Of a DNA stretch of 64,000 nt, positions 8,399-64,000 are shown piece by piece. The first letter of the stretch is position 1. Each line of letters opens with the position of its first letter. Source of the stretch: a virus (taxonomy: Duplodnaviria > Caudoviricetes); the IMG/VR virus record IMGVR_UViG_3300037493_005407, positions 945 to 64,944 of that record. One strand, written 5' to 3'. The position numbers were made by a program, and so were the translations under genes. Below the pieces are notes generated by a model. That model was not told where the DNA came from, searched no databases, and saw only the letters and a list, made by a program, of their open reading frames with translations.

Positions 8399-9779
8399 TC
8401 AGCTGCTGATTGAGCTTCTGCTTGTCCTGCGACATGTTGTCGAGCACGTCCTCCACCCCTGTCGGATCCATCCCAAACATCCTGCCTAGGAACCCGGCCC
8501 GCGGATGGGTCAGGTACTTCTGAACGCGCACGTTGCGCTCGTTCTCGGGTAGCGCCGAGTGCGAGCCGTGACGAATCGCGCGGCCAATCACCTGGTTCAA
8601 CTTCTCTTCATTCCAATGAGGCTCGAGGACCTGGAGGAGCTTAGTGCCCTTCAGGTCCAAGCCTTCTCCACCGGCGGAGGAGACGAGGAGGGCCTTTATT
8701 TTGCCCGCGTTGTACGCCTGCACCGCGGCGTCGCGCTCGGCCTTGGGGATGGACCCGGTGAAGAGCTGGCTCGCCACGCCCCGGCGCTCGAGCTCGCGCT
8801 TGTACTCGTCGAGGTTGTTGAGGAAGTTGGAGTAGACGACCGCCTTGAAGTTGGGGTCCTGGGCCTGTTGCTTGGAGAAGTTGTCGAGGGCGAGCTGCAG
8901 CTTGGGTGAGAGGCTGGGCTCTCCTTCGGTATCGAACTTGTTGGTCGAGCCAGCGATCTGCCGGGTCTGGCTCTCGAACTTGTTGAAGGCTGGCAGGTCC
9001 TTCTGCGTCGGCCGCATGCCCATCCTGAGCTTGATGCGCATGCCCAGTGGCAGCTTGTCCCAGGCGTAGTCATGCAGCATGGTCTGCCGCTTGTTCATGG
9101 GTACACGTAGGGTCTCGTCGGTGCGGGTGGGGAAGTCTCCCCCCTGGGGATTGTCGTAGTCGACCCACTTCTGGAGGCGCTGCTGCAGCTCGCGGGTGTT
9201 CTTCAAGTGTGGCGCGTTGTTGCCCATGAGCAAGCTGATGAAGCCGTTGTCGGGCTTTTCGACGTACCGGTCGTTGAAGTCGCGGTTGGTCGGTAGGACC
9301 CGGGCGCCGGCAGCCATGTTGACCAGTGGGGCGATGTCCGAGGGCCGGTTGTAGACCGGGGTTGCCGTGAGCAGCATGCGCTTCTTGGCGGGGTAGCCCA
9401 TGATGGACTGGTAGAGCTTCGAGCTCGTCTCCCGCGCCCGATGCGCCTCATCCACGATGAGTAGATCGCTAGGCTTTTGAATACCTTTGACTACATCCCC
9501 CTGCTGGCTACGCACGTCGATGCCCGGGTCGCCGAGGACGTGCTTGGCGATCTCCTTCTTGTAGTTCTCCTGGAGAGAGGCCGGCACGAGGGCAGTCGTC
9601 TTGCCGCCACCCTCCTGCAGCGCCGCGGCAATCGAGCTCAACGTCTTGCCGGTGCCGAGTCCGTGGGCCACGACGAGGCCAGGCTGGTCGTGCAAGCGGC
9701 GGAGAACGCGCTGCTGGTGAGGCAAGAGCGGGGTCTGCAGCTCGGCGGCTGCTTCAGCTAATTTTGCGAGGAGTCTCAT
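8373..9779 (-). CDS. SNF2-family (SF2) helicase/ATPase
   Basis: LLPHQ, HGLGTGKT, DEAH, LTATP, AGGEGLDL, HWN..QVIGRAIR motifs. Confidence 0.92.
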   Translation of the reverse strand: MRLLAKLAEAAAELQTPLLPHQQRVLRRLHDQPGLVVAHGLGTGKTLSSIAAALQEGGGKTTALVPASLQENYKKEIAKHVLGDPGIDVRSQQGDVVKGIQKPSDLLIVDEAHRARETSSKLYQSIMGYPAKKRMLLTATPVYNRPSDIAPLVNMAAGARVLPTNRDFNDRYVEKPDNGFISLLMGNNAPHLKNTRELQQRLQKWVDYDNPQGGDFPTRTDETLRVPMNKRQTMLHDYAWDKLPLGMRIKLRMGMRPTQKDLPAFNKFESQTRQIAGSTNKFDTEGEPSLSPKLQLALDNFSKQQAQDPNFKAVVYSNFLNNLDEYKRELERRGVASQLFTGSIPKAERDAAVQAYNAGKIKALLVSSAGGEGLDLKGTKLLQVLEPHWNEEKLNQVIGRAIRHGSHSALPENERNVRVQKYLTHPRAGFLGRMFGMDPTGVEDVLDNMSQDKQKLNQQLINLLQQHQ

Positions 9780-17745: not shown

Positions 17746-18136
17746 GGGCGGTTAAGAACCCTTTTTCATCTGCTAGCACGCGGTCGTTTTCATACGCCGA
17801 TTTCATTAACACCTCACGACTTGTTAACATAGTCCGGAACTTTTCCGCACACCTTATACCAACGAAGCATGTCATATGATGTTGCTAACGTTGGTTCTAC
17901 GTGGTGTTGTTTGAGGATCACTTCGTACAGCACGCAGCCGCACGCGAACGCATTGGGTGGATACTGGTCAGTCGCCGCGGCTGCCACTGTACGGAAACCT
18001 GCTTCGCGCACCTCGCCCCCGAAGGCGCTCGATGAGAAGAAGCCTTCCTGCAAGTCGTTGACGAACTCCGAGACCCGCTCGTATTGCGTCAACCTTCGTT
18101 TATTGGGCATGTGGGGATCCTAGTAAGGCGGACAGG

Positions 18137-32247: not shown

Positions 32248-32525
32248 TCGGCTTTCTCCTTCGGTATCAGTCCGCGGCCTTTACAGCAGAGGCACTCGAC
32301 GAGGTTGTGTTTTGCTTGTAGCGTCTTTGCAAACACTTTACCGGTGGTCTGCTTACCGCACGCGTGGCATTCTATTGGGTCGTTTGTGTGTAGTAGCTCA
32401 CACTCTTCGTCTTTTTCGTCGTCGTCCCAGTATTCAATAGTGAAATTGTCCTTCTCCCCACATACCGGACACTTCCATTCTTCGTCGGTTGGCTGATACG
32501 GCGTGTGTTTGCGATTACAAGGCAT
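32166..32525 (-). CDS. Zn-finger protein
   Basis: CPVCG, CHACG, CLCCKGRG. Confidence 0.6.
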   Translation of the reverse strand: MPCNRKHTPYQPTDEEWKCPVCGEKDNFTIEYWDDDEKDEECELLHTNDPIECHACGKQTTGKVFAKTLQAKHNLVECLCCKGRGLIPKEKAECLLSAQNAASKSLKQTKPSTKNKQSI

Positions 32526-32772
32526 CGTTACCCTTTCTTATACGCGTCCAGCGTATCATGACCTCATTGAGCTTGTTTTCAGTCTCGAACTCAATGAAGT
32601 CGTCCTTCTTGTTCAAACCCTCGTCGTAAATGACCCTTACTCGGAGGTCTCCTTCTTGCTCCAATTCGACATGCTCGAATGGGATACGCGCCCGTACCTC
32701 ACGGGACACCCCTAAGAAGGTGTCCAAGGTACCGGGGTCTGTGCGAAAGTACTGAAATGTGTATTGCGTCAT
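32515..32772 (-). CDS. hypothetical protein
   Basis: GAAGGA RBS; first gene after a terminator/promoter. Confidence 0.6.
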   Translation of the reverse strand: MTQYTFQYFRTDPGTLDTFLGVSREVRARIPFEHVELEQEGDLRVRVIYDEGLNKKDDFIEFETENKLNEVMIRWTRIRKGNDAL

Positions 32773-32824
32773 TCGTCATCCTTCTTGTTTTCAAAAACAG
32801 CTCAAGAAGCGATTAAGATACCAG

Positions 32825-32860
32825 AAAAAAAAGGGAAGGGCTATCGCTAGCCCCTCCCCC
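32825..32860 (-). terminator. intrinsic terminator
   Basis: GGGAGGGGCTA-GCGA-TAGCCCTTCCC followed by T8 on the minus strand. Confidence 0.8.
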
Positions 32861-32872
32861 TTCCCCCATGGA

Positions 32873-33226
32873 TTACTCCGGCTTTGCAGCCGTCTCCATT
32901 TGGAGTTGGTTGGTGATATATTCCTTGAGGCTCGTGGCGGGACGGCTGCGGGAGGCGTTGTCTCTGTAATAGACCACCGCCTCATAAATGAGGATGTTCA
33001 ACGGCATGCCGCGTTCGGTTGCTGTTTCGTAGATTTCGCGTGCCTGCGAATACAGCATGTAAACAGCGATCTGCTCAGTGTGCCGACGGATGAAGCCCGC
33101 GGTAACGCCGAAGCTCTTGGCCAGACTCTGCACCGGACGCTTATAGACCTGGCGCCCGTCGAGGATGTTTACGAGAACGTTGGCCATCACTGAGATGGCG
33201 GTTTCAGCTACGGGTTGCTTACTCAT
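32873..33226 (-). CDS. hypothetical protein
   Basis: AGGAG RBS; ends before the terminator. Confidence 0.65.
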   Translation of the reverse strand: MSKQPVAETAISVMANVLVNILDGRQVYKRPVQSLAKSFGVTAGFIRRHTEQIAVYMLYSQAREIYETATERGMPLNILIYEAVVYYRDNASRSRPATSLKEYITNQLQMETAAKPE

Positions 33227-36532: not shown

Positions 36533-36635
36533 TTCTGGCTCCTTCTTTGTTGTGAAATTACCCTCTAGCGACTTGTACCAATAACGACTAGAATTTCCGG
36601 CAGACGGTTCCTAATCTGTTCAACGGAGGTTTGTC

Positions 36636-36959
36636 ATGCACCCAGCAATGATTCACGGTTACGCCGATGTCCTGATTCGTCTTGGTATGCAAAAAGAAGC
36701 GGATGAGCTCCTGAAGCGCGCCGCTGGCCCGCTCGGCGCTGGTCCGGTTGCCGCGCCGGCTCCCAAGCCCGCCGCGCTCCCGCCGCAAGCACGGGCGAAG
36801 GCTCCCGGCGCCGCCAACGCCGCCAACCTGGGCATGCCCACTGGCAAGCCCCCGGCTCCGGCGCTCGCGGCTTCCTCTGGCCCCAGCGCTGCAGCGAAGG
36901 CCCAGGCCAAGAGCTACGCCAACATGATCCCGGCTCCCCCCTCGATTCCCGGGATGTGA
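36636..36959 (+). CDS. Ala/Pro-rich putative internal virion protein
   Basis: GGAGG RBS; leader HGYADVLIRLGMQKEA. Confidence 0.7.
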   Translation: MHPAMIHGYADVLIRLGMQKEADELLKRAAGPLGAGPVAAPAPKPAALPPQARAKAPGAANAANLGMPTGKPPAPALAASSGPSAAAKAQAKSYANMIPAPPSIPGM

Positions 36960-36968
36960 GGTGACATC

Positions 36969-37553
36969 ATGACGCCGTATGACATGGGATGCTGGTCATC
37001 CCTGAAGCGACTCGGCATGCTCAAGGTAGCCGATGCCGCACTGCAGCTGGACTTCCTGGACACGGTCCCACGTCTCCGCGGTGAGAGTGGTGTACTTTCC
37101 GTGCATGGGGAGAAACTAGCCACCTGGCGTTTCGACAAGTTGGGCGGGCTCGGTAGCTGGGTCAAAAACCTGTTCAGACGCCGTGCTGCTATGAAGGCAG
37201 CGCCCAGCGCGGGCGTCATCGACGACGCTGAGACGGCGTTTGCCGGGCGTGCGCGTCGTCCGCCGAGCCGCGGTGAGAACCGTGCCGCCGAGCGCAACAT
37301 GGCTGGGATTCCGCCACGGCAGACCGGCGGTGGCGCAGGAGCTGCAGCTGGTGGAGCGCCTCCCCCACCCAACGCCAAGGGGATGAGCCCCGCGGCCAAG
37401 TGGGGCCTCGGAGCAGGTGCCGGCGGTCTCGCCGCAGGCTACTACCTAGGAAGCCCGTCCGCCCCGCAGCAACCCTTGCAGCAGTACGGCCAACCAGGTG
37501 AAACTCCGTATGGCGCTTACGGTACAGGCATGACTCCCGGTGGTGGGTTCTAG
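36969..37553 (+). CDS. Gly/Ala-rich putative internal virion protein
   Basis: GAGGT RBS; leader MGCWSSLKRLGMLKVA; C-terminal GLGAGAGGLAAGYYLG. Confidence 0.7.
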   Translation: MTPYDMGCWSSLKRLGMLKVADAALQLDFLDTVPRLRGESGVLSVHGEKLATWRFDKLGGLGSWVKNLFRRRAAMKAAPSAGVIDDAETAFAGRARRPPSRGENRAAERNMAGIPPRQTGGGAGAAAGGAPPPPNAKGMSPAAKWGLGAGAGGLAAGYYLGSPSAPQQPLQQYGQPGETPYGAYGTGMTPGGGF

Positions 37554-37554
37554 T

Positions 37555-38019
37555 TTAGCGCTGCGCGGCAAACACCGAAGACGTGATGGAGAGGGCGATG
37601 ATAGCGGCGAGCTCGACTCCGGCCGTTACCTTCCAGCCGATCGCGTAATGCTTGAAGTCCTTGTCCAACTGTAGATTGTACTTCCGCTCGTCTTCCACAC
37701 GGGCTCGCAGGTAGTCTCTCTCGGTCTTTAAAAATGAGACTTCATCCTTGAGGTTTTTCACCCGCTGGTCGTACGTAGCTGTCAGTATCGAGTAGTCCGA
37801 CATTGTCCCTTCCGCGACTTTGTTGAGCTCGTACAGCCGAACGTACTCGTTGGCGAGGAGCAGGATATCTCGCCATTGTTCCGTGTTCGCACAGCGCACA
37901 TCTTCAGTGCCACGCTTTGTGCTTGGAACATCTGGTAGGTACATACGCTCTTCACTGAACGCGTACCACGCCATGAAGAACACAGTGCATCCAACCAGAA
38001 CTGCCCGGAGCATGTTCAT
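37555..38019 (-). CDS. signal-peptide, coiled-coil, C-terminal TM protein (spanin-like?)
   Basis: Hydrophobic N- and C-termini; ATGA-coupled to the upstream gene. Confidence 0.55.
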   Translation of the reverse strand: MNMLRAVLVGCTVFFMAWYAFSEERMYLPDVPSTKRGTEDVRCANTEQWRDILLLANEYVRLYELNKVAEGTMSDYSILTATYDQRVKNLKDEVSFLKTERDYLRARVEDERKYNLQLDKDFKHYAIGWKVTAGVELAAIIALSITSSVFAAQR

Positions 38020-38438
38020 GGTCTCACCAATCCCAGTTTACGTTCAAGACGTTGCAAGTCATCCATCGACTTTGCGCTGTTAAGAGCATCCGCTGCGACG
38101 GCGTGTTCCATGTTATTCATCTTCGCTTCTTGCTGCCTAACCAAAAGAGAAGTCCGAAGCTCTTGGAGCTTTGCCTCGTACTCAGCGTCAGCCTCGTCCG
38201 CGGCTGCTACCGCTGCGTCCGTACCCTTGGCAATTACGGCATCCGCGGTCGGGACTGGAGGCGGTGATGCCGGGGGTTCCTTCGATGATGTGCTCGCCCC
38301 CGAAGGAGCGGGTCGAGTAAAAAAAATCTTCACGATGAACAGAAGCACAAGGAAGATGAGCACGGCAAAACCGAGTATCTTCCACCAGGGCTTCAGACCC
38401 AGGTACCAATTCAGCACGGTGGTGTATAGTTTTTCCAT
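38016..38438 (-). CDS. N-terminal TM coiled-coil protein (i-spanin-like?)
   Basis: ILGFAVLIFLVLLFIVKIFF, Pro-rich linker, heptads. Confidence 0.55.
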   Translation of the reverse strand: MEKLYTTVLNWYLGLKPWWKILGFAVLIFLVLLFIVKIFFTRPAPSGASTSSKEPPASPPPVPTADAVIAKGTDAAVAAADEADAEYEAKLQELRTSLLVRQQEAKMNNMEHAVAADALNSAKSMDDLQRLERKLGLVRP

Positions 38439-38452
38439 GCTGTAATCGTAGT

Positions 38453-38790
38453 AAAAAAGAGCCTACCTACCACCAAGAGTGTTGGTCTTGAACTGGGCAA
38501 GAACAACCTTTTCGTCATTCGGCGACGTGCCGATTCCGGCATGTAACACACCGGGGTCGTCTAAAACAGTTACTGGTAGGTAGACCCTATGTTCCTTACA
38601 CACCTGAGATGGTAATCGCGAAGCGGGACTTCGAGCGTGTGAACATTTTCGCCCTGGAAAATTTTCACGTAGCGAGAAGCGGCGCAGCAATTACCTCACT
38701 GGCTACGGCTATTATCGCCGTTTACGCGAGTAACTCGCGCGACGCATCGCACGTCACAATGCAAGAAGCGTGTGCAAGGAACACAAGGAC
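38453..38790 (-). ncRNA. unknown highly structured non-coding RNA candidate
   Basis: 19-bp stem (38770-38788 with 38585-38603) and 12-bp stem (38574-38585 with 38461-38472) with G-U pairs on the minus strand; internal hairpins; TGGTATAAG motif upstream and a U-tract downstream. Confidence 0.6.
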
Positions 38791-38803
38791 TTATACCAGG
38801 TAT

Positions 38804-38944
38804 CTACTTGGATTTGGGAGTGGGAATTTTGGTCTTGTTACCGGTGTGCTCCTGACGCTTCTCCCACTTGCGCCGGTCATCCTCTTTTGGAGGACGCGGC
38901 GGAAGGTTCTTCGTAGGAAGCCGGTATATGGTTGGTGCGCCCAT
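38804..38944 (-). CDS. 46-aa basic Pro-rich peptide (not in ORF track)
   Basis: MGAPTIYRLPTKNLPPRPPKEDDRRKWEK..., starting 3 nt after the upstream stop. Confidence 0.4.
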   Translation of the reverse strand: MGAPTIYRLPTKNLPPRPPKEDDRRKWEKRQEHTGNKTKIPTPKSK

Positions 38945-38947
38945 TTT

Positions 38948-39355
38948 TTAGAATGAAGACATGTGCTGAACAGGTCCGTTGATACGCACTTGCTCTCCCA
39001 TGCTGTACCCCATGGGATTCTGCTGATACACACGGCCGTTCTGCATGGCCATCTCGTACTGGATTTTCTTGCGCTCGTCGTTACGCGCCTTTTGCGCGGC
39101 CAGCGTACCGATGATGATCGCTCCCAGAGCTCCAGCGACTAGCGGCATCATCTTGGTCTTGGTCAATGCCGCGGTAGCCCTGCGCACAGTCTCTTCTTGC
39201 GCATGGATGGTAGGCTGAAGCATCTTGCGCAACAGCATGTACGCCCCGACCCCGCCTGCGCCGCCAGCAACTACGGGCATCGCATACTGCCCCATCCCTT
39301 GGGACGCATTAGGGTCGTTCGCAAATTTCGCAAGCATCGAAAGTGCGCGCATCAT
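38948..39355 (-). CDS. Gly-rich putative virion protein
   Basis: LAKFA leader; two Gly-rich hydrophobic segments. Confidence 0.65.
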   Translation of the reverse strand: MMRALSMLAKFANDPNASQGMGQYAMPVVAGGAGGVGAYMLLRKMLQPTIHAQEETVRRATAALTKTKMMPLVAGALGAIIIGTLAAQKARNDERKKIQYEMAMQNGRVYQQNPMGYSMGEQVRINGPVQHMSSF

Positions 39356-47978: not shown

Positions 47979-49496
47979 TTAGGCGCCCATCACTACGCGC
48001 AGACTTTTTACTGCGGCCATCAAGGGGGTGACAGTCGTGTTGAATCCCGCCAGAGCAGGAGCCATCGCAGGACCAGAAGGTCCCCACGTAGTTGTGTGTG
48101 TATGCGAGTCTAAGAGGGTAATGAGCTGCGTCATCAGCGTCTGCCACTTTAGGAATAGCATCGCCCAGTCAGTAGGCGGATTCAACGCCGCTTCAGCGTA
48201 AGGACCCGGAGCAACACACCCAAGACCAATAGAGTCTGGTTTAAGAGAGTTGAGGCTGACAGTCGATACTACGCCAGGCTGCTTGGGGTCACTACCTAGG
48301 ATCACCGCGCCATTATAAACATAAACCTTATAGCCAGGTATCGCAGAGGGAATCGCGCTGTCTTTGGGGTTACCCACCATGATCACATAGCTGCCATTCA
48401 CGCAGCGTAATTCTGCAGCGTTGTTTGTGGGTAGAGCATCCGCAGGTGTACCACCCAATATAGTTATGTTCTGTTGCCCGCCAACACTCTTTAGGTCATG
48501 CCGTCCGATGGTCTTATTCGAATCTACGCCGACGGTGGTCGTAGCAACATTCTGGACAGCTTGAGTGACGTCACCGGCGACATTGAGCGTTTTGTTATTG
48601 CCGATCCATTCACGCTTCTCTCCTTGAATACGGCGTACGACATTGCCACCAATGTTCTCCCGCCGCTCTCCCGCCCCCGTAATGTTCACACCTTTTTCAC
48701 CGAAGATTTCTACGTAACCATCTGGAGATATTTTGATTTCTGCGTAGGTCTTTGAGGCATCAGGAGAGGTCACCTTCATGCTGAAGATACGCCCCTCGTC
48801 CCCGATGTCCAAGTGAAACGTAGGCTGTCCCTTTTCGTTTAGCTGATCAGCAGATCCACGTAACGACAGCGTGTGTCTTCCATTCTTGTTCTCAATCTTG
48901 AGCTCACCAAAAGAAGAGAAGTGCTCGAAGTTCTCACAGATTATACGTACTAGATTGTGCTGACCAAGACACATCACCTGCGCATTTTCACTGCCATACA
49001 GCTGCGCAAATTTCCCGCGCTTCGTAGCAAGGTAACTGCCATCAGGGTTAACCAGGCACACGTCACCTGGGAGCATCCCCTTTGGCGTCATCGCTGAACG
49101 AAAAGTTCCTGACGTACCTGTAGGTGTAGAACCTTCACCGACATCCATGGCGGTAAAGTCGGGCGCTACGTCCGGAGCTTCCAGCCGTGCGACAGCGTCT
49201 TTATCCAGAACACCGTCGATGTACGGAAAACCGAGTGTGAAATCTACGATGACCGCGGTGCTTGCGCTGAGAACTACGTGTTCTCCGGGGTATGACTTCT
49301 TACGGGGAATACCCGGTATTCTCCTACCAGAGTCTCCTGCGACGCGCTTATTGCCTTCTGTTGAAACGGTGTACGTATCCGAGCTCTCATCATACTCGAG
49401 GATACTTCCAAATGCTTTACCCGTAGGCATGTAGTCGCCAGACATGGCGACGTTTCCGCGTACGAGATCTTTTCTTTTGATGTGAGAGTCTCCCAT
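47979..49496 (-). CDS. baseplate central spike (gp5/gpV-like)
   Basis: N-terminal OB-like region, 8-residue VxG beta-helix repeats, C-terminal SHTH metal-binding motif. Confidence 0.7.
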   Translation of the reverse strand: MGDSHIKRKDLVRGNVAMSGDYMPTGKAFGSILEYDESSDTYTVSTEGNKRVAGDSGRRIPGIPRKKSYPGEHVVLSASTAVIVDFTLGFPYIDGVLDKDAVARLEAPDVAPDFTAMDVGEGSTPTGTSGTFRSAMTPKGMLPGDVCLVNPDGSYLATKRGKFAQLYGSENAQVMCLGQHNLVRIICENFEHFSSFGELKIENKNGRHTLSLRGSADQLNEKGQPTFHLDIGDEGRIFSMKVTSPDASKTYAEIKISPDGYVEIFGEKGVNITGAGERRENIGGNVVRRIQGEKREWIGNNKTLNVAGDVTQAVQNVATTTVGVDSNKTIGRHDLKSVGGQQNITILGGTPADALPTNNAAELRCVNGSYVIMVGNPKDSAIPSAIPGYKVYVYNGAVILGSDPKQPGVVSTVSLNSLKPDSIGLGCVAPGPYAEAALNPPTDWAMLFLKWQTLMTQLITLLDSHTHTTTWGPSGPAMAPALAGFNTTVTPLMAAVKSLRVVMGA

Positions 49497-61291: not shown

Positions 61292-64000
61292 TCAACCAAC
61301 AAGAACCATCCCAATAAGCTCCGCCACTTTGTTAAAGTCAACGCAGGGGAGAAGTACTGTGTCTGTCGGTTGTAACTGTAGCTCTGCAGAAATGTCCATC
61401 GACATCTTTTCTGAATTAGCGGCCCACTGCCGAAACTTTTCGTCTGTTCCTTTTGCCCAATCACCTACCGTAGCTCTAATGCGCTCACGGTTCATCCTGC
61501 CGTGTTGCGCTAGAGGTCTTACGATATTTTTTGCAAGGTATTGCGCGGCGGGCGTTTGCCCAAAGGCCCTCAATCCCAGCGTACCGCCTACTGCGGTAAG
61601 CAACGGATGATTTACCGCTACGGATTCCAGCGCATTCATCGCCCGCGTTGGTGCTGGGTCATAGGGATCTACTTCAGGTTCTCCGCGGTTAATACGACTA
61701 TGGTAATCGTGCGCGGCTAAACCCATCAAACCAAGTGTTCCAAACAGCGGCAGAGCTAATGACGCAGAGCCAGTTTTTGTCGTTAACTCAGTCGTTATCG
61801 GAATAGGAATTCCCTGGTCCGTCATGTAATGCCGGCCCATAGTAGGCCACTGCGAAAGTCCTACTCCGGCTAAGGTAGCGCCTACCAGTGGTCGTAGATT
61901 TCCTAGACCTTTGGAGCGTAACCCTGAAGCCATCATCTTGTAGGCGCCACCTAAAAGCGCGCCGCCACCCACTACTTTGTAGAGATTACGCTTTGCGACG
62001 TCGTCATGCGACGCGATGGCTGCCCGTCGCGTAGTCGCGTACTGCTGCCCAGACACCGGGTCTGTTATCGTAAGCGGAGTTGTCTGGTCATATTCTTCGC
62101 GGTACTGCGAAGGAACAACTTTACGCTTGAGGTACTCCATAATGCCTGATCTTTTTTCAAGATACGGCATTATAACCTCAGCTACCTTTGCGTCGATGTG
62201 ACTCGGAGCAATATCGAACACTCCACTCTGGTCAATCGAGTCCAACAACTGCGGCATGTCCTCGAACAAACGCATAACTGAACCACGAAGAGCCGTAATA
62301 CGGTCGACCAAGTCATCCGGGATTTGCCCGATACCTGGGTGAGACTTGTAAATTACGATTTTGGTAACCTCAGGGGTGTTCATCAACATCCCTGAAGAGA
62401 GCGTGGTTGTCACGACGTTACGCAAAGGGTGTGTAGCGAGCTCTTGGAGTGTACTGTCGCTCATGGTGGGCATGCGCTGTCCCATACGCAGGGCTTCGTC
62501 ACGCATCTTTGTAACGTTGCCGAGCTCCACCGGGTCAATACCCTCCGACTTAGCGTCCAGGGGGACACCCTGTATCACCTTGTCGATTACAGCTAGCTTA
62601 TGCGCTGCGAGCTTCCGCTCCTGCATCTCTTCGAGATACTCGCCCGCCGCTGCTCCAGAAATAACGTACGGTTGTTCATACGCGACTTTCTTCATCATGT
62701 ATGCCGTCGGGTCTGCAGGTCTAATCACCCAAGAGATGTCGAAGAACTTGGGACTCGGATTGAGTGCAGCAACCTTTACACCGTCGAAAACGTCGCGCAT
62801 GTGAAAGCGCAGATGGTCACAATACTGTGCACGGGTTGGCGCACGGTTACCGCAGATAGTACAGTTGTGGCTGCAGATACCCTCAGCCAAGTAACTCTCA
62901 TCATCCTCAACCGCTAGGTTGTGCACAACGTTGGTGGCGTCGGAGGAGCTCTCTATTTTTTTGACCGGTGTACACCAGTAGGAGCTCCAGAAGAAACTTT
63001 TTGGGCTTCCGTGCTGGGGTATTTTTTGAATCCAAGACGCTTTGGCTGAGTATGGCTTTAGCTTCTGCAAGTCGTGAGCTGTGACGAAAGCGTGGTAGCT
63101 AGGTATGCGCGTAGTCCCATCGAAGCTTACAGGGTGTCCTGCGTTTCCCGCAGTTACATGTAACCCTACTGACAAACCAAGGCGCTGTGTGTCGATGAGT
63201 AACGCGGGGTTAGTAGATAAAATTCTGCCTACACCCTTAGCCGCGTCCACAGAGCCATCAGTATCCAAATACCCACCAAGAACGCTTAGCTTCTCGTTGA
63301 CGCTCCAGCTAAAAACGCTCTCGTGTATCTTCTTCTCCTTTGATTTAGACCCACCCAGCTCCAAAATAGTAGCCGCTAACTCAGGGCTGTTTACGTGAAT
63401 AGCCGCTTCTGTTTTGTCGGGGTTATCGTATCTGTTCCAACCATTAGGAAGCGCGAGTTCGTCAAGAGCATCACAAAGGTGTTTAATACAGTCCTCTTGA
63501 GTCAAGTTCATACTGAACTGAACCCCACGAGGAAACTTAATCCTGGGTGTGCTGGTGTCGTACGCTGTTTCGTGCCTTTCACTCCAGATAACAGAACCGT
63601 TACCCAGGTAGAAACCAAATACCGTCGCTAAAGCAGTACCGACAGTGTCTTTAGGGTTGCAGGTATCTACCGGAATAAGAGCGTAGTCACCCACTCGAAT
63701 GTCTTCAGCGGGAGTCCACTCAGGTGTTAATTCGACAGCACGATTACAACGAGGGCACGTAGGCTCCGCGTCTTTTTGGAACTTGTGGCGAAGACGTTCA
63801 CCGTTCGCTGACCCCGTACAAGTTCGTACATCTTCCTTCTTCAGGATTAAGAAGGGATGTTTTCCTGTGGCCGTAATAGGGTGAGCTACGCCACTCGCTG
63901 TTACGGTGTAAAGGTCTTCGTCTGTCTCGTGAACATAGTGGGCTGTTACTCGCTTCAGTGCTCCGGTGTGTGTGCGTACTGTTTCGCCAATCTCGATGTC
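61292..64000 (-). CDS. prohead (maturation) protease containing an intein; 5' end outside window
   Basis: Frame open to 64000; C-extein CTICGN...YCDH...NPSPKFFDISWVIRPAD; heads the capsid module. Confidence 0.75.
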   Translation of the reverse strand, partial: DIEIGETVRTHTGALKRVTAHYVHETDEDLYTVTASGVAHPITATGKHPFLILKKEDVRTCTGSANGERLRHKFQKDAEPTCPRCNRAVELTPEWTPAEDIRVGDYALIPVDTCNPKDTVGTALATVFGFYLGNGSVIWSERHETAYDTSTPRIKFPRGVQFSMNLTQEDCIKHLCDALDELALPNGWNRYDNPDKTEAAIHVNSPELAATILELGGSKSKEKKIHESVFSWSVNEKLSVLGGYLDTDGSVDAAKGVGRILSTNPALLIDTQRLGLSVGLHVTAGNAGHPVSFDGTTRIPSYHAFVTAHDLQKLKPYSAKASWIQKIPQHGSPKSFFWSSYWCTPVKKIESSSDATNVVHNLAVEDDESYLAEGICSHNCTICGNRAPTRAQYCDHLRFHMRDVFDGVKVAALNPSPKFFDISWVIRPADPTAYMMKKVAYEQPYVISGAAAGEYLEEMQERKLAAHKLAVIDKVIQGVPLDAKSEGIDPVELGNVTKMRDEALRMGQRMPTMSDSTLQELATHPLRNVVTTTLSSGMLMNTPEVTKIVIYKSHPGIGQIPDDLVDRITALRGSVMRLFEDMPQLLDSIDQSGVFDIAPSHIDAKVAEVIMPYLEKRSGIMEYLKRKVVPSQYREEYDQTTPLTITDPVSGQQYATTRRAAIASHDDVAKRNLYKVVGGGALLGGAYKMMASGLRSKGLGNLRPLVGATLAGVGLSQWPTMGRHYMTDQGIPIPITTELTTKTGSASLALPLFGTLGLMGLAAHDYHSRINRGEPEVDPYDPAPTRAMNALESVAVNHPLLTAVGGTLGLRAFGQTPAAQYLAKNIVRPLAQHGRMNRERIRATVGDWAKGTDEKFRQWAANSEKMSMDISAELQLQPTDTVLLPCVDFNKVAELIGMVLVG
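62864..64000 (-). mobile_element. intein with LAGLIDADG homing endonuclease (N-terminus outside window)
   Basis: Block B ATGKHPF; FGFYLGNG and LGGYLDTDG; block F/G VHNLAVEDDESYLAEGICSHN, then Cys+1. Confidence 0.9.

Follow-up and report, generated by a model that had tools for sequence, protein, structure and literature searches.

Large structured RNAs encoded beside phage tRNA islands (GOLLD, ROOL, and the RNAC and RNAD of T4) are a long-standing puzzle. GOLLD and ROOL often lie near tRNA islands, one GOLLD being located downstream of a Met-tRNA, and the reports describe them as highly structured, multi-domain RNAs of unknown function with no linked partner protein gene (10.1101/2024.12.08.627333, PMC5737381). 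RNAC and RNAD are stable RNAs from the T4 tRNA region whose roles are given as unknown (PMC3014915). Here we analyse an element of 338 nt on the minus strand of phage DNA (38453-38790 of the window, by which we mean the whole stretch of DNA analysed, 64,000 of the 64,944 bases of IMG/VR record IMGVR_UViG_3300037493_005407; CheckV completeness 36%). We put at roughly 55% the probability that it is a real accessory RNA, about 330 nt long, non-coding, stable and independently transcribed, which an uncultured jumbo phage carries in its RNA island and which has a role in trans. By context GOLLD, ROOL and T4 RNAC/RNAD appear to be its closest analogues. Structured RNAs of obscure role in phage tRNA regions are known; the sequence family and the build of two modules with triloop hairpins are new. 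The locus adds to the puzzle a smaller and simpler example, with a defined candidate promoter, a candidate terminator and a two-module build.

The window RNA resembles GOLLD and ROOL in its setting, since it occupies a slot that holds tRNA-Met, transfer-messenger RNA (tmRNA) and tRNAs in sister phages; the association with a tRNA island is thus one of synteny. It differs from them in size (338 nt against about 580 nt for ROOL and more than 800 nt for GOLLD) and in being simpler, with two closed junction domains that are known here from predicted secondary structure, and the GOLLD and ROOL covariance models do not match it at their gathering thresholds or at E<=10. GOLLD and ROOL themselves have many junctions and pseudoknots and form multimeric cages made of RNA only. 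Like RNAC and RNAD it would be a stable RNA of a phage tRNA region, the window phage being set beside them by description only, whereas the window fragment itself has no tRNA in its 64 kb according to ARAGORN. RNAC and RNAD are also much shorter.

Two other known RNAs invite comparison. tmRNA has a similar length and is found in the same slot behind the same promoter in sister phages, but neither the tmRNA-clan models (RF00023 and permuted tmRNA, in 38200-39100 even at E<=10) nor ARAGORN match the window RNA. The 5' end of the latter pairs in the predicted fold with its middle (nt 186-204) and not with its 3' end, and no T-arm, CCA end or tag frame is seen. A normal tmRNA, moreover, is already encoded on the plus strand of the window at 2330-2671 (RF00023, 89.1 bits against a gathering threshold of 47; ARAGORN tag AEPQEMLKAA), 36 kb away from the slot that houses tmRNA in sister phages. 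The second is the 6S RNA of lambda, a short pR'-tR' leader transcript that runs from promoter to terminator. Like it, the window element appears as a promoter-to-terminator unit directly upstream of possibly late-acting genes, but it is far more structured, relatives use its promoter for tRNA and tmRNA genes too, its downstream gene is not conserved across lineages and no antiterminator was identified.

Structure of the minus-strand RNA

The minus strand of 38790-38453 folds with a predicted energy of -137.3 kcal/mol (z = -6.59), a value that none of 100 dinucleotide shuffles equalled. A GC-corrected folding scan of 564 tiles of 338 nt spanning the entire window placed the element as the top outlier (residual z -4.0; next best -3.0), and in the same kind of test the genuine tmRNA of the window reached only z = -1.8.

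The original prediction, made from the letters of the window, had proposed a structured minus-strand RNA of two domains with its own promoter motif and U-tract, and its components can all be read in the sequence. They comprise the 19-bp stem CCTTGTGTTCCTTGCACAC/GTGTGTAAGGAACATAGGG with three G-U pairs; the inner hairpins GTGACG/CGTCGC, GCGAG/CTCGC and ACGGC/GCCGT; the arm GGTAATTGC/GCGATTACC; a second domain closed by the 12-bp stem GTCTACCTACCA/TGGTAGGTAGGC and holding the hairpins CCGGTGTG/CATGCCGG and TCGGC/GCCGA; and the terminal U6 and the promoter-like TGGTATAAG at the expected positions (Table 1). The minimum-energy (MFE) fold of the minus-strand RNA recovers these stems, with about 69% of the bases paired in two closed domains. 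Strand specificity, also claimed at the outset, is borne out by the weaker folding of the plus strand (z = -3.69). G-U pairs account for about 13 of the 117 predicted ones, hence the element fits a minus-strand RNA and not a DNA element.

Table 1. Features of the element and its adjoining genes (window coordinates)
Feature	Position	Strand	Description	Basis
Extended -10 element	38790..38798	-	TGGTATAAG (TGn + TATAAG); 8/9 positions match a TGnTATAAT-like element	
Domain 1	38585..38788	-	multi-helix junction closed by long stem 38788-38770/38603-38585	MFE, centroid; RNAalifold with L023
Hairpin A	38724..38740	-	GCGCGAG-UUA-CUCGCGU; 7-bp stem, three-base loop closed by G-C	
Domain 1 long arm	38609..38696	-	GGUAAUUGC/GCGAUUACC around GUGAAAAUUUUC.../GAAAAUGUUCAC	MFE, RNAalifold
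Domain 2	38461..38585	-	closed by 12-bp stem 38585-38574/38472-38461	MFE, RNAalifold
Hairpin B	38536..38554	-	CCGGUGUG-UUA-CAUGCCGG; 8-bp stem with two G-U, three-base loop closed by G-C	
Alternative hairpin	38481..38507	-	GUUGnUCUUG/CAAGAnCAAC; competes with MFE hairpin at RNA nt 301-317	
U6 tract	38453..38458	-	directly 3' of domain-2 closing stem; presumed intrinsic terminator; identical in L023	
p46	38804..38944	-	46-aa basic protein; upstream neighbour, anchor of the slot	
p140	38016..38438	-	140-aa membrane-anchored protein; downstream, ATG 15 nt past U-tract	
p154	37555..38019	-	154-aa protein; N-terminal LVGC lipobox-like motif only in window and L023	

Searches against known RNA families

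A search of Rfam 15 (4227 families; gathering thresholds over the whole window, E<=10 on 38200-39100) found only the tmRNA at 2330-2671 at gathering, as did ARAGORN. It gave no match at gathering across the element and none that was credible at E<=10, where only chance matches to HOTAIR_3, PhotoRC-I and H19_2 (E = 2.4-3.6) appeared. Together with the negative ARAGORN result this upholds the earlier view that the element is not a tRNA, tmRNA, signal recognition particle RNA or RNase P RNA. Some RNAs depend on an enzyme encoded next to them, for example retron msr/msd, the guide RNAs of IscB/TnpB and CRISPR-like RNAs. The ten proteins around the element showed no reverse transcriptase, nuclease or Cas domain in Pfam or PHROGs. 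blastn-short detected no second copy or repeat of the element in the window. A full-text literature search returned no description of the RNA or of its hairpin; the supplementary motif lists of PMC5737381 lay outside that search, though such motifs would be expected in Rfam, where the result was negative. PMC12595487 concerns islands at bacterial tmRNA genes and has no bearing on the element.

Conservation and coding status

Homologues were sought with blastn ('distant' setting) in 50,697 phage records and by profile search of IMG/VR, metagenomes and GTDB. The phage records held no match to the element, and a locus search by single protein also found none. The profile search recovered the region at 20 IMG/VR loci and 59 metagenome loci but at none in GTDB genomes, and pattern scans with the invariant stretches of the element gave no hit in IMG/VR or GTDB. 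One of the recovered loci (L023, positions 9361-9697 of a metagenome contig) carries a homologue of the RNA that is 86% identical over 335 nt; p604, a 604-aa protein of the region, is 93% identical there. A further protein, P0002, 61% identical to p604, is encoded on a 122-kb ENA contig. Because the relatives of the window p604 sit on contigs of 170-180 kb, the window is a piece of a jumbo phage genome of roughly 170-180 kb. Near-identical DNA occurs in sediment and freshwater metagenome runs, and no RNA run stood among the 15 that were listed.

Comparison with L023 speaks to coding potential. The two RNAs differ by indels of 1, 2, 1 and 1 nt, and the sense-strand open reading frames (ORFs) of the element shift frame in L023 while the flanking p46 is identical at 46 of 46 residues. 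The overlapping antisense ORF 38609-38956 (115 aa), which had been named as a possible translated element, is split in L023. In a 32-aa minus-strand ORF all five residue differences from L023 are replacements (translations compared). Judged from these sequences the element is non-coding on both strands.

Identity to L023, measured per 100 nt, is 77-93% in the flanking genes, 81-82% in the two bins of domain 1 and 94% in the bin of domain 2, which overall is about 95% identical. Among the 117 MFE pairs, 5 show double compensatory changes, 9 have one-sided changes that still pair and 5 are broken; slid controls gave 0-2 double changes. RNAalifold with L023 places three of the compensatory double changes in the long arm of domain 1 (columns 98/178, 103/173 and 113/161), and a fourth in that arm (columns 96/180) comes from the MFE fold of the window itself. 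Hairpin A is identical in L023 though the loops of adjacent hairpins differ, and hairpin B is unchanged in L023 and in four metagenome runs. Covariance models built for domain 2 (R1) and domain 1 (R2) each match the window and L023 only.

Strain variants were taken from DNA contigs of the four runs. Within the RNA, 38474 C>T is present in 4/4 runs and changes at 38485, 38491, 38503 and 38624 and the deletion 38494del in some. G317A (4/4 runs) disrupts the MFE hairpin at RNA nt 301-317. At the centre of the alternative hairpin (38507-38481) a U-C mismatch is replaced by G-C in both L023 and run X7. The strain variants favour this alternative and so leave the inner fold of domain 2 unsettled.

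The slot in related phages

The gene order p218-p604-Zn-ribbon-p229-p135-p46-[slot]-p140-p154 is retained in many relatives, and the slot is the tRNA/tmRNA site of the phage family, a key aspect of the setting that was not visible to the original prediction. We examined 27 slots (26 loci and the window), several being duplicates of one contig in two collections. By ARAGORN, 14 of them contain tRNA and/or tmRNA and 13 contain neither. In L005, L008, L009 and L013 an Rfam tmRNA (100-115 bits) lies directly after p46 and is followed by tRNA arrays, and the slots of sister phages include tRNA-Met together with tmRNA and tRNA arrays. The slots that lack tRNAs hold promoter-to-terminator units of 200-530 nt, with no sequence similarity between lineages. 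The folding z-scores of those that were folded are -10.6 (L002), -8.5 (L004), -7.8 (L025), -5.6 (L010), -5.1 (L042), -5.8 (L044), -11.9 (L050) and -6.6 (L031). The L050 RNA, in a slot of about 526 nt that follows the p46 homologue, has the most extreme fold and contains a near-perfect hairpin of about 100 bp. L045 lacks a large RNA and has only the promoter with a small terminator hairpin. Compensatory changes occur at 35 of 103 pairs in the L002/L004/L025 group and at 12 of 39 pairs in the L010 group. A search of the L002 slot against Rfam at E<=10 returned nothing credible.

A tRNA-bearing relative has an RNA of matching build. Flush between two tRNAs, L003:13303-13681 (+) is an RNA of 379 nt with two closed domains (z = -6.35); an ORF and a tRNA lie between it and p46, and it has no sequence similarity to the window RNA. 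In L025 and L044 the same kind of RNA precedes other genes. There is no trade-off with tmRNA, since the window and the L003 genome each carry both; RF00023 detects a tmRNA in genomes G003 and G005 but none in G001 (L002, 97% complete) or G004 (L014, 95% complete). The conserved slot can be compared across lineages in which it holds tRNA/tmRNA, one of several unrelated structured RNAs, or nothing.

Promoter and terminator signals

The sequence (T)GGTAnAA(G) follows the p46 stop codon in 18/18 representative relatives, and in many of them TTGAAA or a run of A lies some 17 nt further upstream. The window has 11 copies of TGGTAHAA where 3.3 would be expected. Other promoter-like copies, with an A-run or TTGAAA, a gap of about 13-17 nt and TGGTAnAAG, lie at 1081, 3712, 42464, 43268 and 43669 on the plus strand, where they are very alike (…AAAAA…TGGTAAAAGAA), and at 17861, 29467, 36580 and 44093 on the minus strand. 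TGGTAnAAG is probably the general promoter type of the phage. A generic -35/-10 scan did not list TGGTATAAG because of its weak -35.

If TGGTATAAG is an extended -10 element, transcription would be expected to start near 38784-38782, which probably leaves the outer 5-6 pairs of the 19-bp stem upstream of the transcript. The pairing that had been predicted is present, but its outermost part is thus probably not in the RNA. In L023 one non-pairing change falls at the outer end of this stem and another further in. At the other end of the element, the 12-bp stem of domain 2, which encloses about 100 nt, is followed by UCUUUUUU and both are kept in L023. The related slot RNAs finish in canonical terminators of hairpin and U-tract.

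Shared triloop hairpins

Hairpins A and B share a G-UNA-C triloop, for which we used the definition of a stem of at least 6 bp and a G-(UUA/UAA/AUA/CUA)-C loop. The whole minus strand of the window has four such hairpins, two of them inside the element. In nine relatives the slot RNAs (3,621 nt in all) contain 14, whereas the other 121,514 nt contain 9, and 5 of those 9 sit just beyond the chosen RNA borders. Triloop hairpins are also found within the tRNA islands of L003, L005, L013 and L046 and are absent from L008, L009, L014 and L045.

When the ends of each RNA are placed at its promoter, its terminator or the adjoining tRNAs, the MFE folds of the window, L023, L004, L025 and L003 show two closed domains in tandem, each with one triloop hairpin. 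L002 also has one per domain, but its second domain is split in the MFE. Both domains of the L003 RNA, each with G-UAA-C, run in the order closing stem, hairpin, triloop hairpin, small hairpin and long arm. The triloop hairpin of the L010 type is invariant in five sequences, and its pattern was found in its own three contigs only; the triloop stems of the L002 type covary. The independent units in these comparisons are lineages, not loci, and number about six.

Discussion

We propose that a conserved promoter of sigma70 type, with TGGTATAAG as its extended -10 element, lies immediately behind p46 and starts an RNA that would end at the domain-2 closing stem and U6 and would fold as two tandem closed domains, each with one invariant G-UNA-C triloop hairpin. 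Sharing an RNA island with tRNA-Met, tmRNA, tRNA arrays or similar RNAs suggests that it is one of a set of accessory RNAs of phages, so far undescribed and evolving fast, that have a modular build in common. By analogy with GOLLD, ROOL and T4 RNAC/RNAD it may act in trans as a scaffold or decoy. The two triloop hairpins could then contact a protein or a second copy of the RNA, as proposed for GOLLD/ROOL. If read-through into the membrane-protein genes downstream were affected at all, this would be a secondary matter. The structural signal, the non-coding status, the conservation, and the promoter and slot context are the observations from which this proposal starts. Transcription, stability, action in trans and the existence of a partner are what we infer from them. 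The earlier call of a novel phage non-coding RNA is partly borne out, in that the element is structured, on the minus strand, absent from Rfam and has kept its fold in one close homologue; the sponge, packaging and lysis-regulator roles offered with it gained no evidence.

Several results weigh against this proposal. These can be summarised as (i) among all loci L023 alone has an RNA homologue (nhmmer, blastn), hence RNA-specific covariation is weak, and 53 of 500 shuffles reach five double changes, which makes the two-sequence covariation supportive and not decisive; (ii) most strain variants fail to keep MFE pairs (G317A in 4/4 runs, U300C, G167A and the A297 deletion), and the inner fold of domain 2 is uncertain; (iii) models R1, R2 and R3 match their own lineages only, with no cross-lineage homology in 43 sources (622,823 nt), and the triloop motif was defined post hoc after seeing the data, so that a 'family' across lineages rests on context, architecture and a post hoc motif; (iv) a constant distance from closing stem to triloop (39-44 nt, domain 2) was considered as a hallmark and rejected, as arbitrary windows around background hairpins gave helices at 18-38 nt; (v) no partner or target came to light, and the best complementarity of the element to the rest of the window, including the tmRNA, consists of 12-mers, which is chance level; (vi) a consensus terminator scan (loop of 3-8 nt) did not list the 3' end of the element, because the enclosed 'loop' is about 100 nt, and the terminator would be non-canonical; and (vii) the stretch from the p46 stop (38804) to the element contains no terminator, so that the element could be the 3' end of the upstream operon.

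A wider claim would be that the RNA is a member of an unrecognised modular class, characterised by two tandem domains with invariant triloops, found in the tRNA/tmRNA islands of a sediment jumbo-phage clade, with a lasting architecture but a sequence replaced wholesale from one lineage to the next, and serving a new RNA function. We hold this to be possible but doubtful. By analogy, such a class might serve as a decoy or scaffold alongside the translation RNAs of the phage, or might form an RNA-only assembly like the cages of GOLLD and ROOL. Were the class true, it would give a tractable entry to the role of such RNAs in infection, and phage RNA islands would hold more than tRNAs. The G-UNA-C triloop hairpin is a short candidate recognition element that could be mutated or used as bait.

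One different explanation is that the element is the structured 3' untranslated end of the p229-p135-p46 operon, acting as terminator or insulator and guarding the mRNA from 3' exonucleases. Domain 2 with U6 is indeed the first terminator-like signal downstream of p46, and the gap noted under (vii) fits this explanation. However, the conserved promoter that precedes the RNA in all 18 representatives makes a pure 3' untranslated region unlikely. The RNA of L003 is kept apart from p46 by an ORF and a tRNA, and the small terminator hairpin of L045 suffices, which indicates that 330 nt are not needed to terminate.

Equally improbable, in our estimate, is a leader or attenuator in cis in the style of lambda pR'-6S-tR', which would gate p140 and p154 (maybe lysis genes) and have no function in trans. 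Its appeal lies in the position of the U-tract, 15 nt before the p140 ATG with no clear separate promoter or Shine-Dalgarno sequence seen there, in the two mutually exclusive hairpins of the 3' part of domain 2 and in the fact that p140 and p154 are membrane proteins. The linkage to p140 is, however, not conserved: the RNAs of relatives precede different genes (L025, L044) or sit between two tRNAs (L003), and a dedicated lysis-leader role for p140/p154 is therefore unlikely. By eye, the terminator in L002, L004 and L010 is followed by a -10-like element and a Shine-Dalgarno sequence that belong to p140 itself. In sister phages the promoter of the element stands before genes for tRNA and tmRNA, an identity as spanin or holin finds no support, and pairing of about 69% of the bases in two closed domains goes far beyond what a leader needs; the parallel with lambda is itself a matter of general background.

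It is very unlikely that the element acts as DNA, whether as an origin, a packaging or recombination site, or a mobile remnant resembling a miniature inverted-repeat transposable element with 19-bp terminal inverted repeats. A 19-nt inverted repeat does flank domain 1, and the content of the slot varies like that of an insertion hot spot, L044 and L045 resembling presence and absence. The G-U pairs, which as DNA or on the opposite strand would turn into A-C mismatches, and the asymmetry between the strands, with the plus strand folding much worse, make a DNA-level element unlikely. Against it stand also the single copy in the window with none by pattern in IMG/VR or GTDB, the promoter and U-tract that frame the sense orientation, and compensatory changes that preserve Watson-Crick or wobble pairing.

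The idea least favoured by the data, that the element is the decayed relic of a tRNA/tmRNA island whose functional tmRNA has relocated to 2330-2671, takes its cue from the tmRNA and tRNAs in the slot of sister phages and from a window with its tmRNA elsewhere and no tRNA, but it is most improbable because the fold is exceptional (loss of structure would be expected, yet no other segment of the window folds as well, and the real tmRNA scores far lower) and is kept in L023, the element matches no tRNA, tmRNA or permuted-tmRNA model even at E<=10, and L003 combines a tmRNA elsewhere with an RNA of the same build.

Neighbouring genes and other features of the window

Nearly all genes of the window lie on the minus strand, and almost none belongs to a Pfam or PHROGs family; this includes nearly all of ten flanking and ten large proteins. 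The 'putative virion genes' that had been placed upstream of the element are ORFans, the sole virion-type match nearby being a gp5-like tail domain about 9 kb away. That match, at 47979-49496 (-), is to the C-terminal trimerisation domain of T4 gp5 (E = 2.7e-7), which is typical of a tail spike or baseplate hub.

Homologues of p46 are 32-59% identical (tblastn), with the same gene order in many relatives. The protein has no Pfam or PHROGs family; it is very basic, rich in proline and lysine, and always at the upstream edge of the RNA slot, and it could be an RNA-binding peptide. p140 has weak, sub-threshold family matches only (Pfam, PHROGs). In other lineages the homologues of p154 have, by eye, an ordinary signal peptide in most cases and a C-terminal membrane anchor. 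The description of p140 and p154 as a spanin-like pair finds no backing in Pfam or PHROGs, and most p154 homologues appear by eye to lack a lipobox, which makes a spanin role doubtful.

The region 36533-37554 is G+C-rich and of low complexity, with overlapping ORFs of 194 aa (+) and 161 aa (-) of doubtful coding status; its identity to L023 is only 54-82%, with many indels. An 800-aa protein encoded at 61292-63694 (-) has a weak LAGLIDADG-like match (E = 3e-4). The structured stretch ranked second in the window, 32520-32880 (-), with z = -5.2, contains a strong terminator-like hairpin (GGGGGAAGGGGGAGGGGCUAGCGAUAGCCCUUCCC) followed by U8, and the remainder outside this hairpin may be coding.

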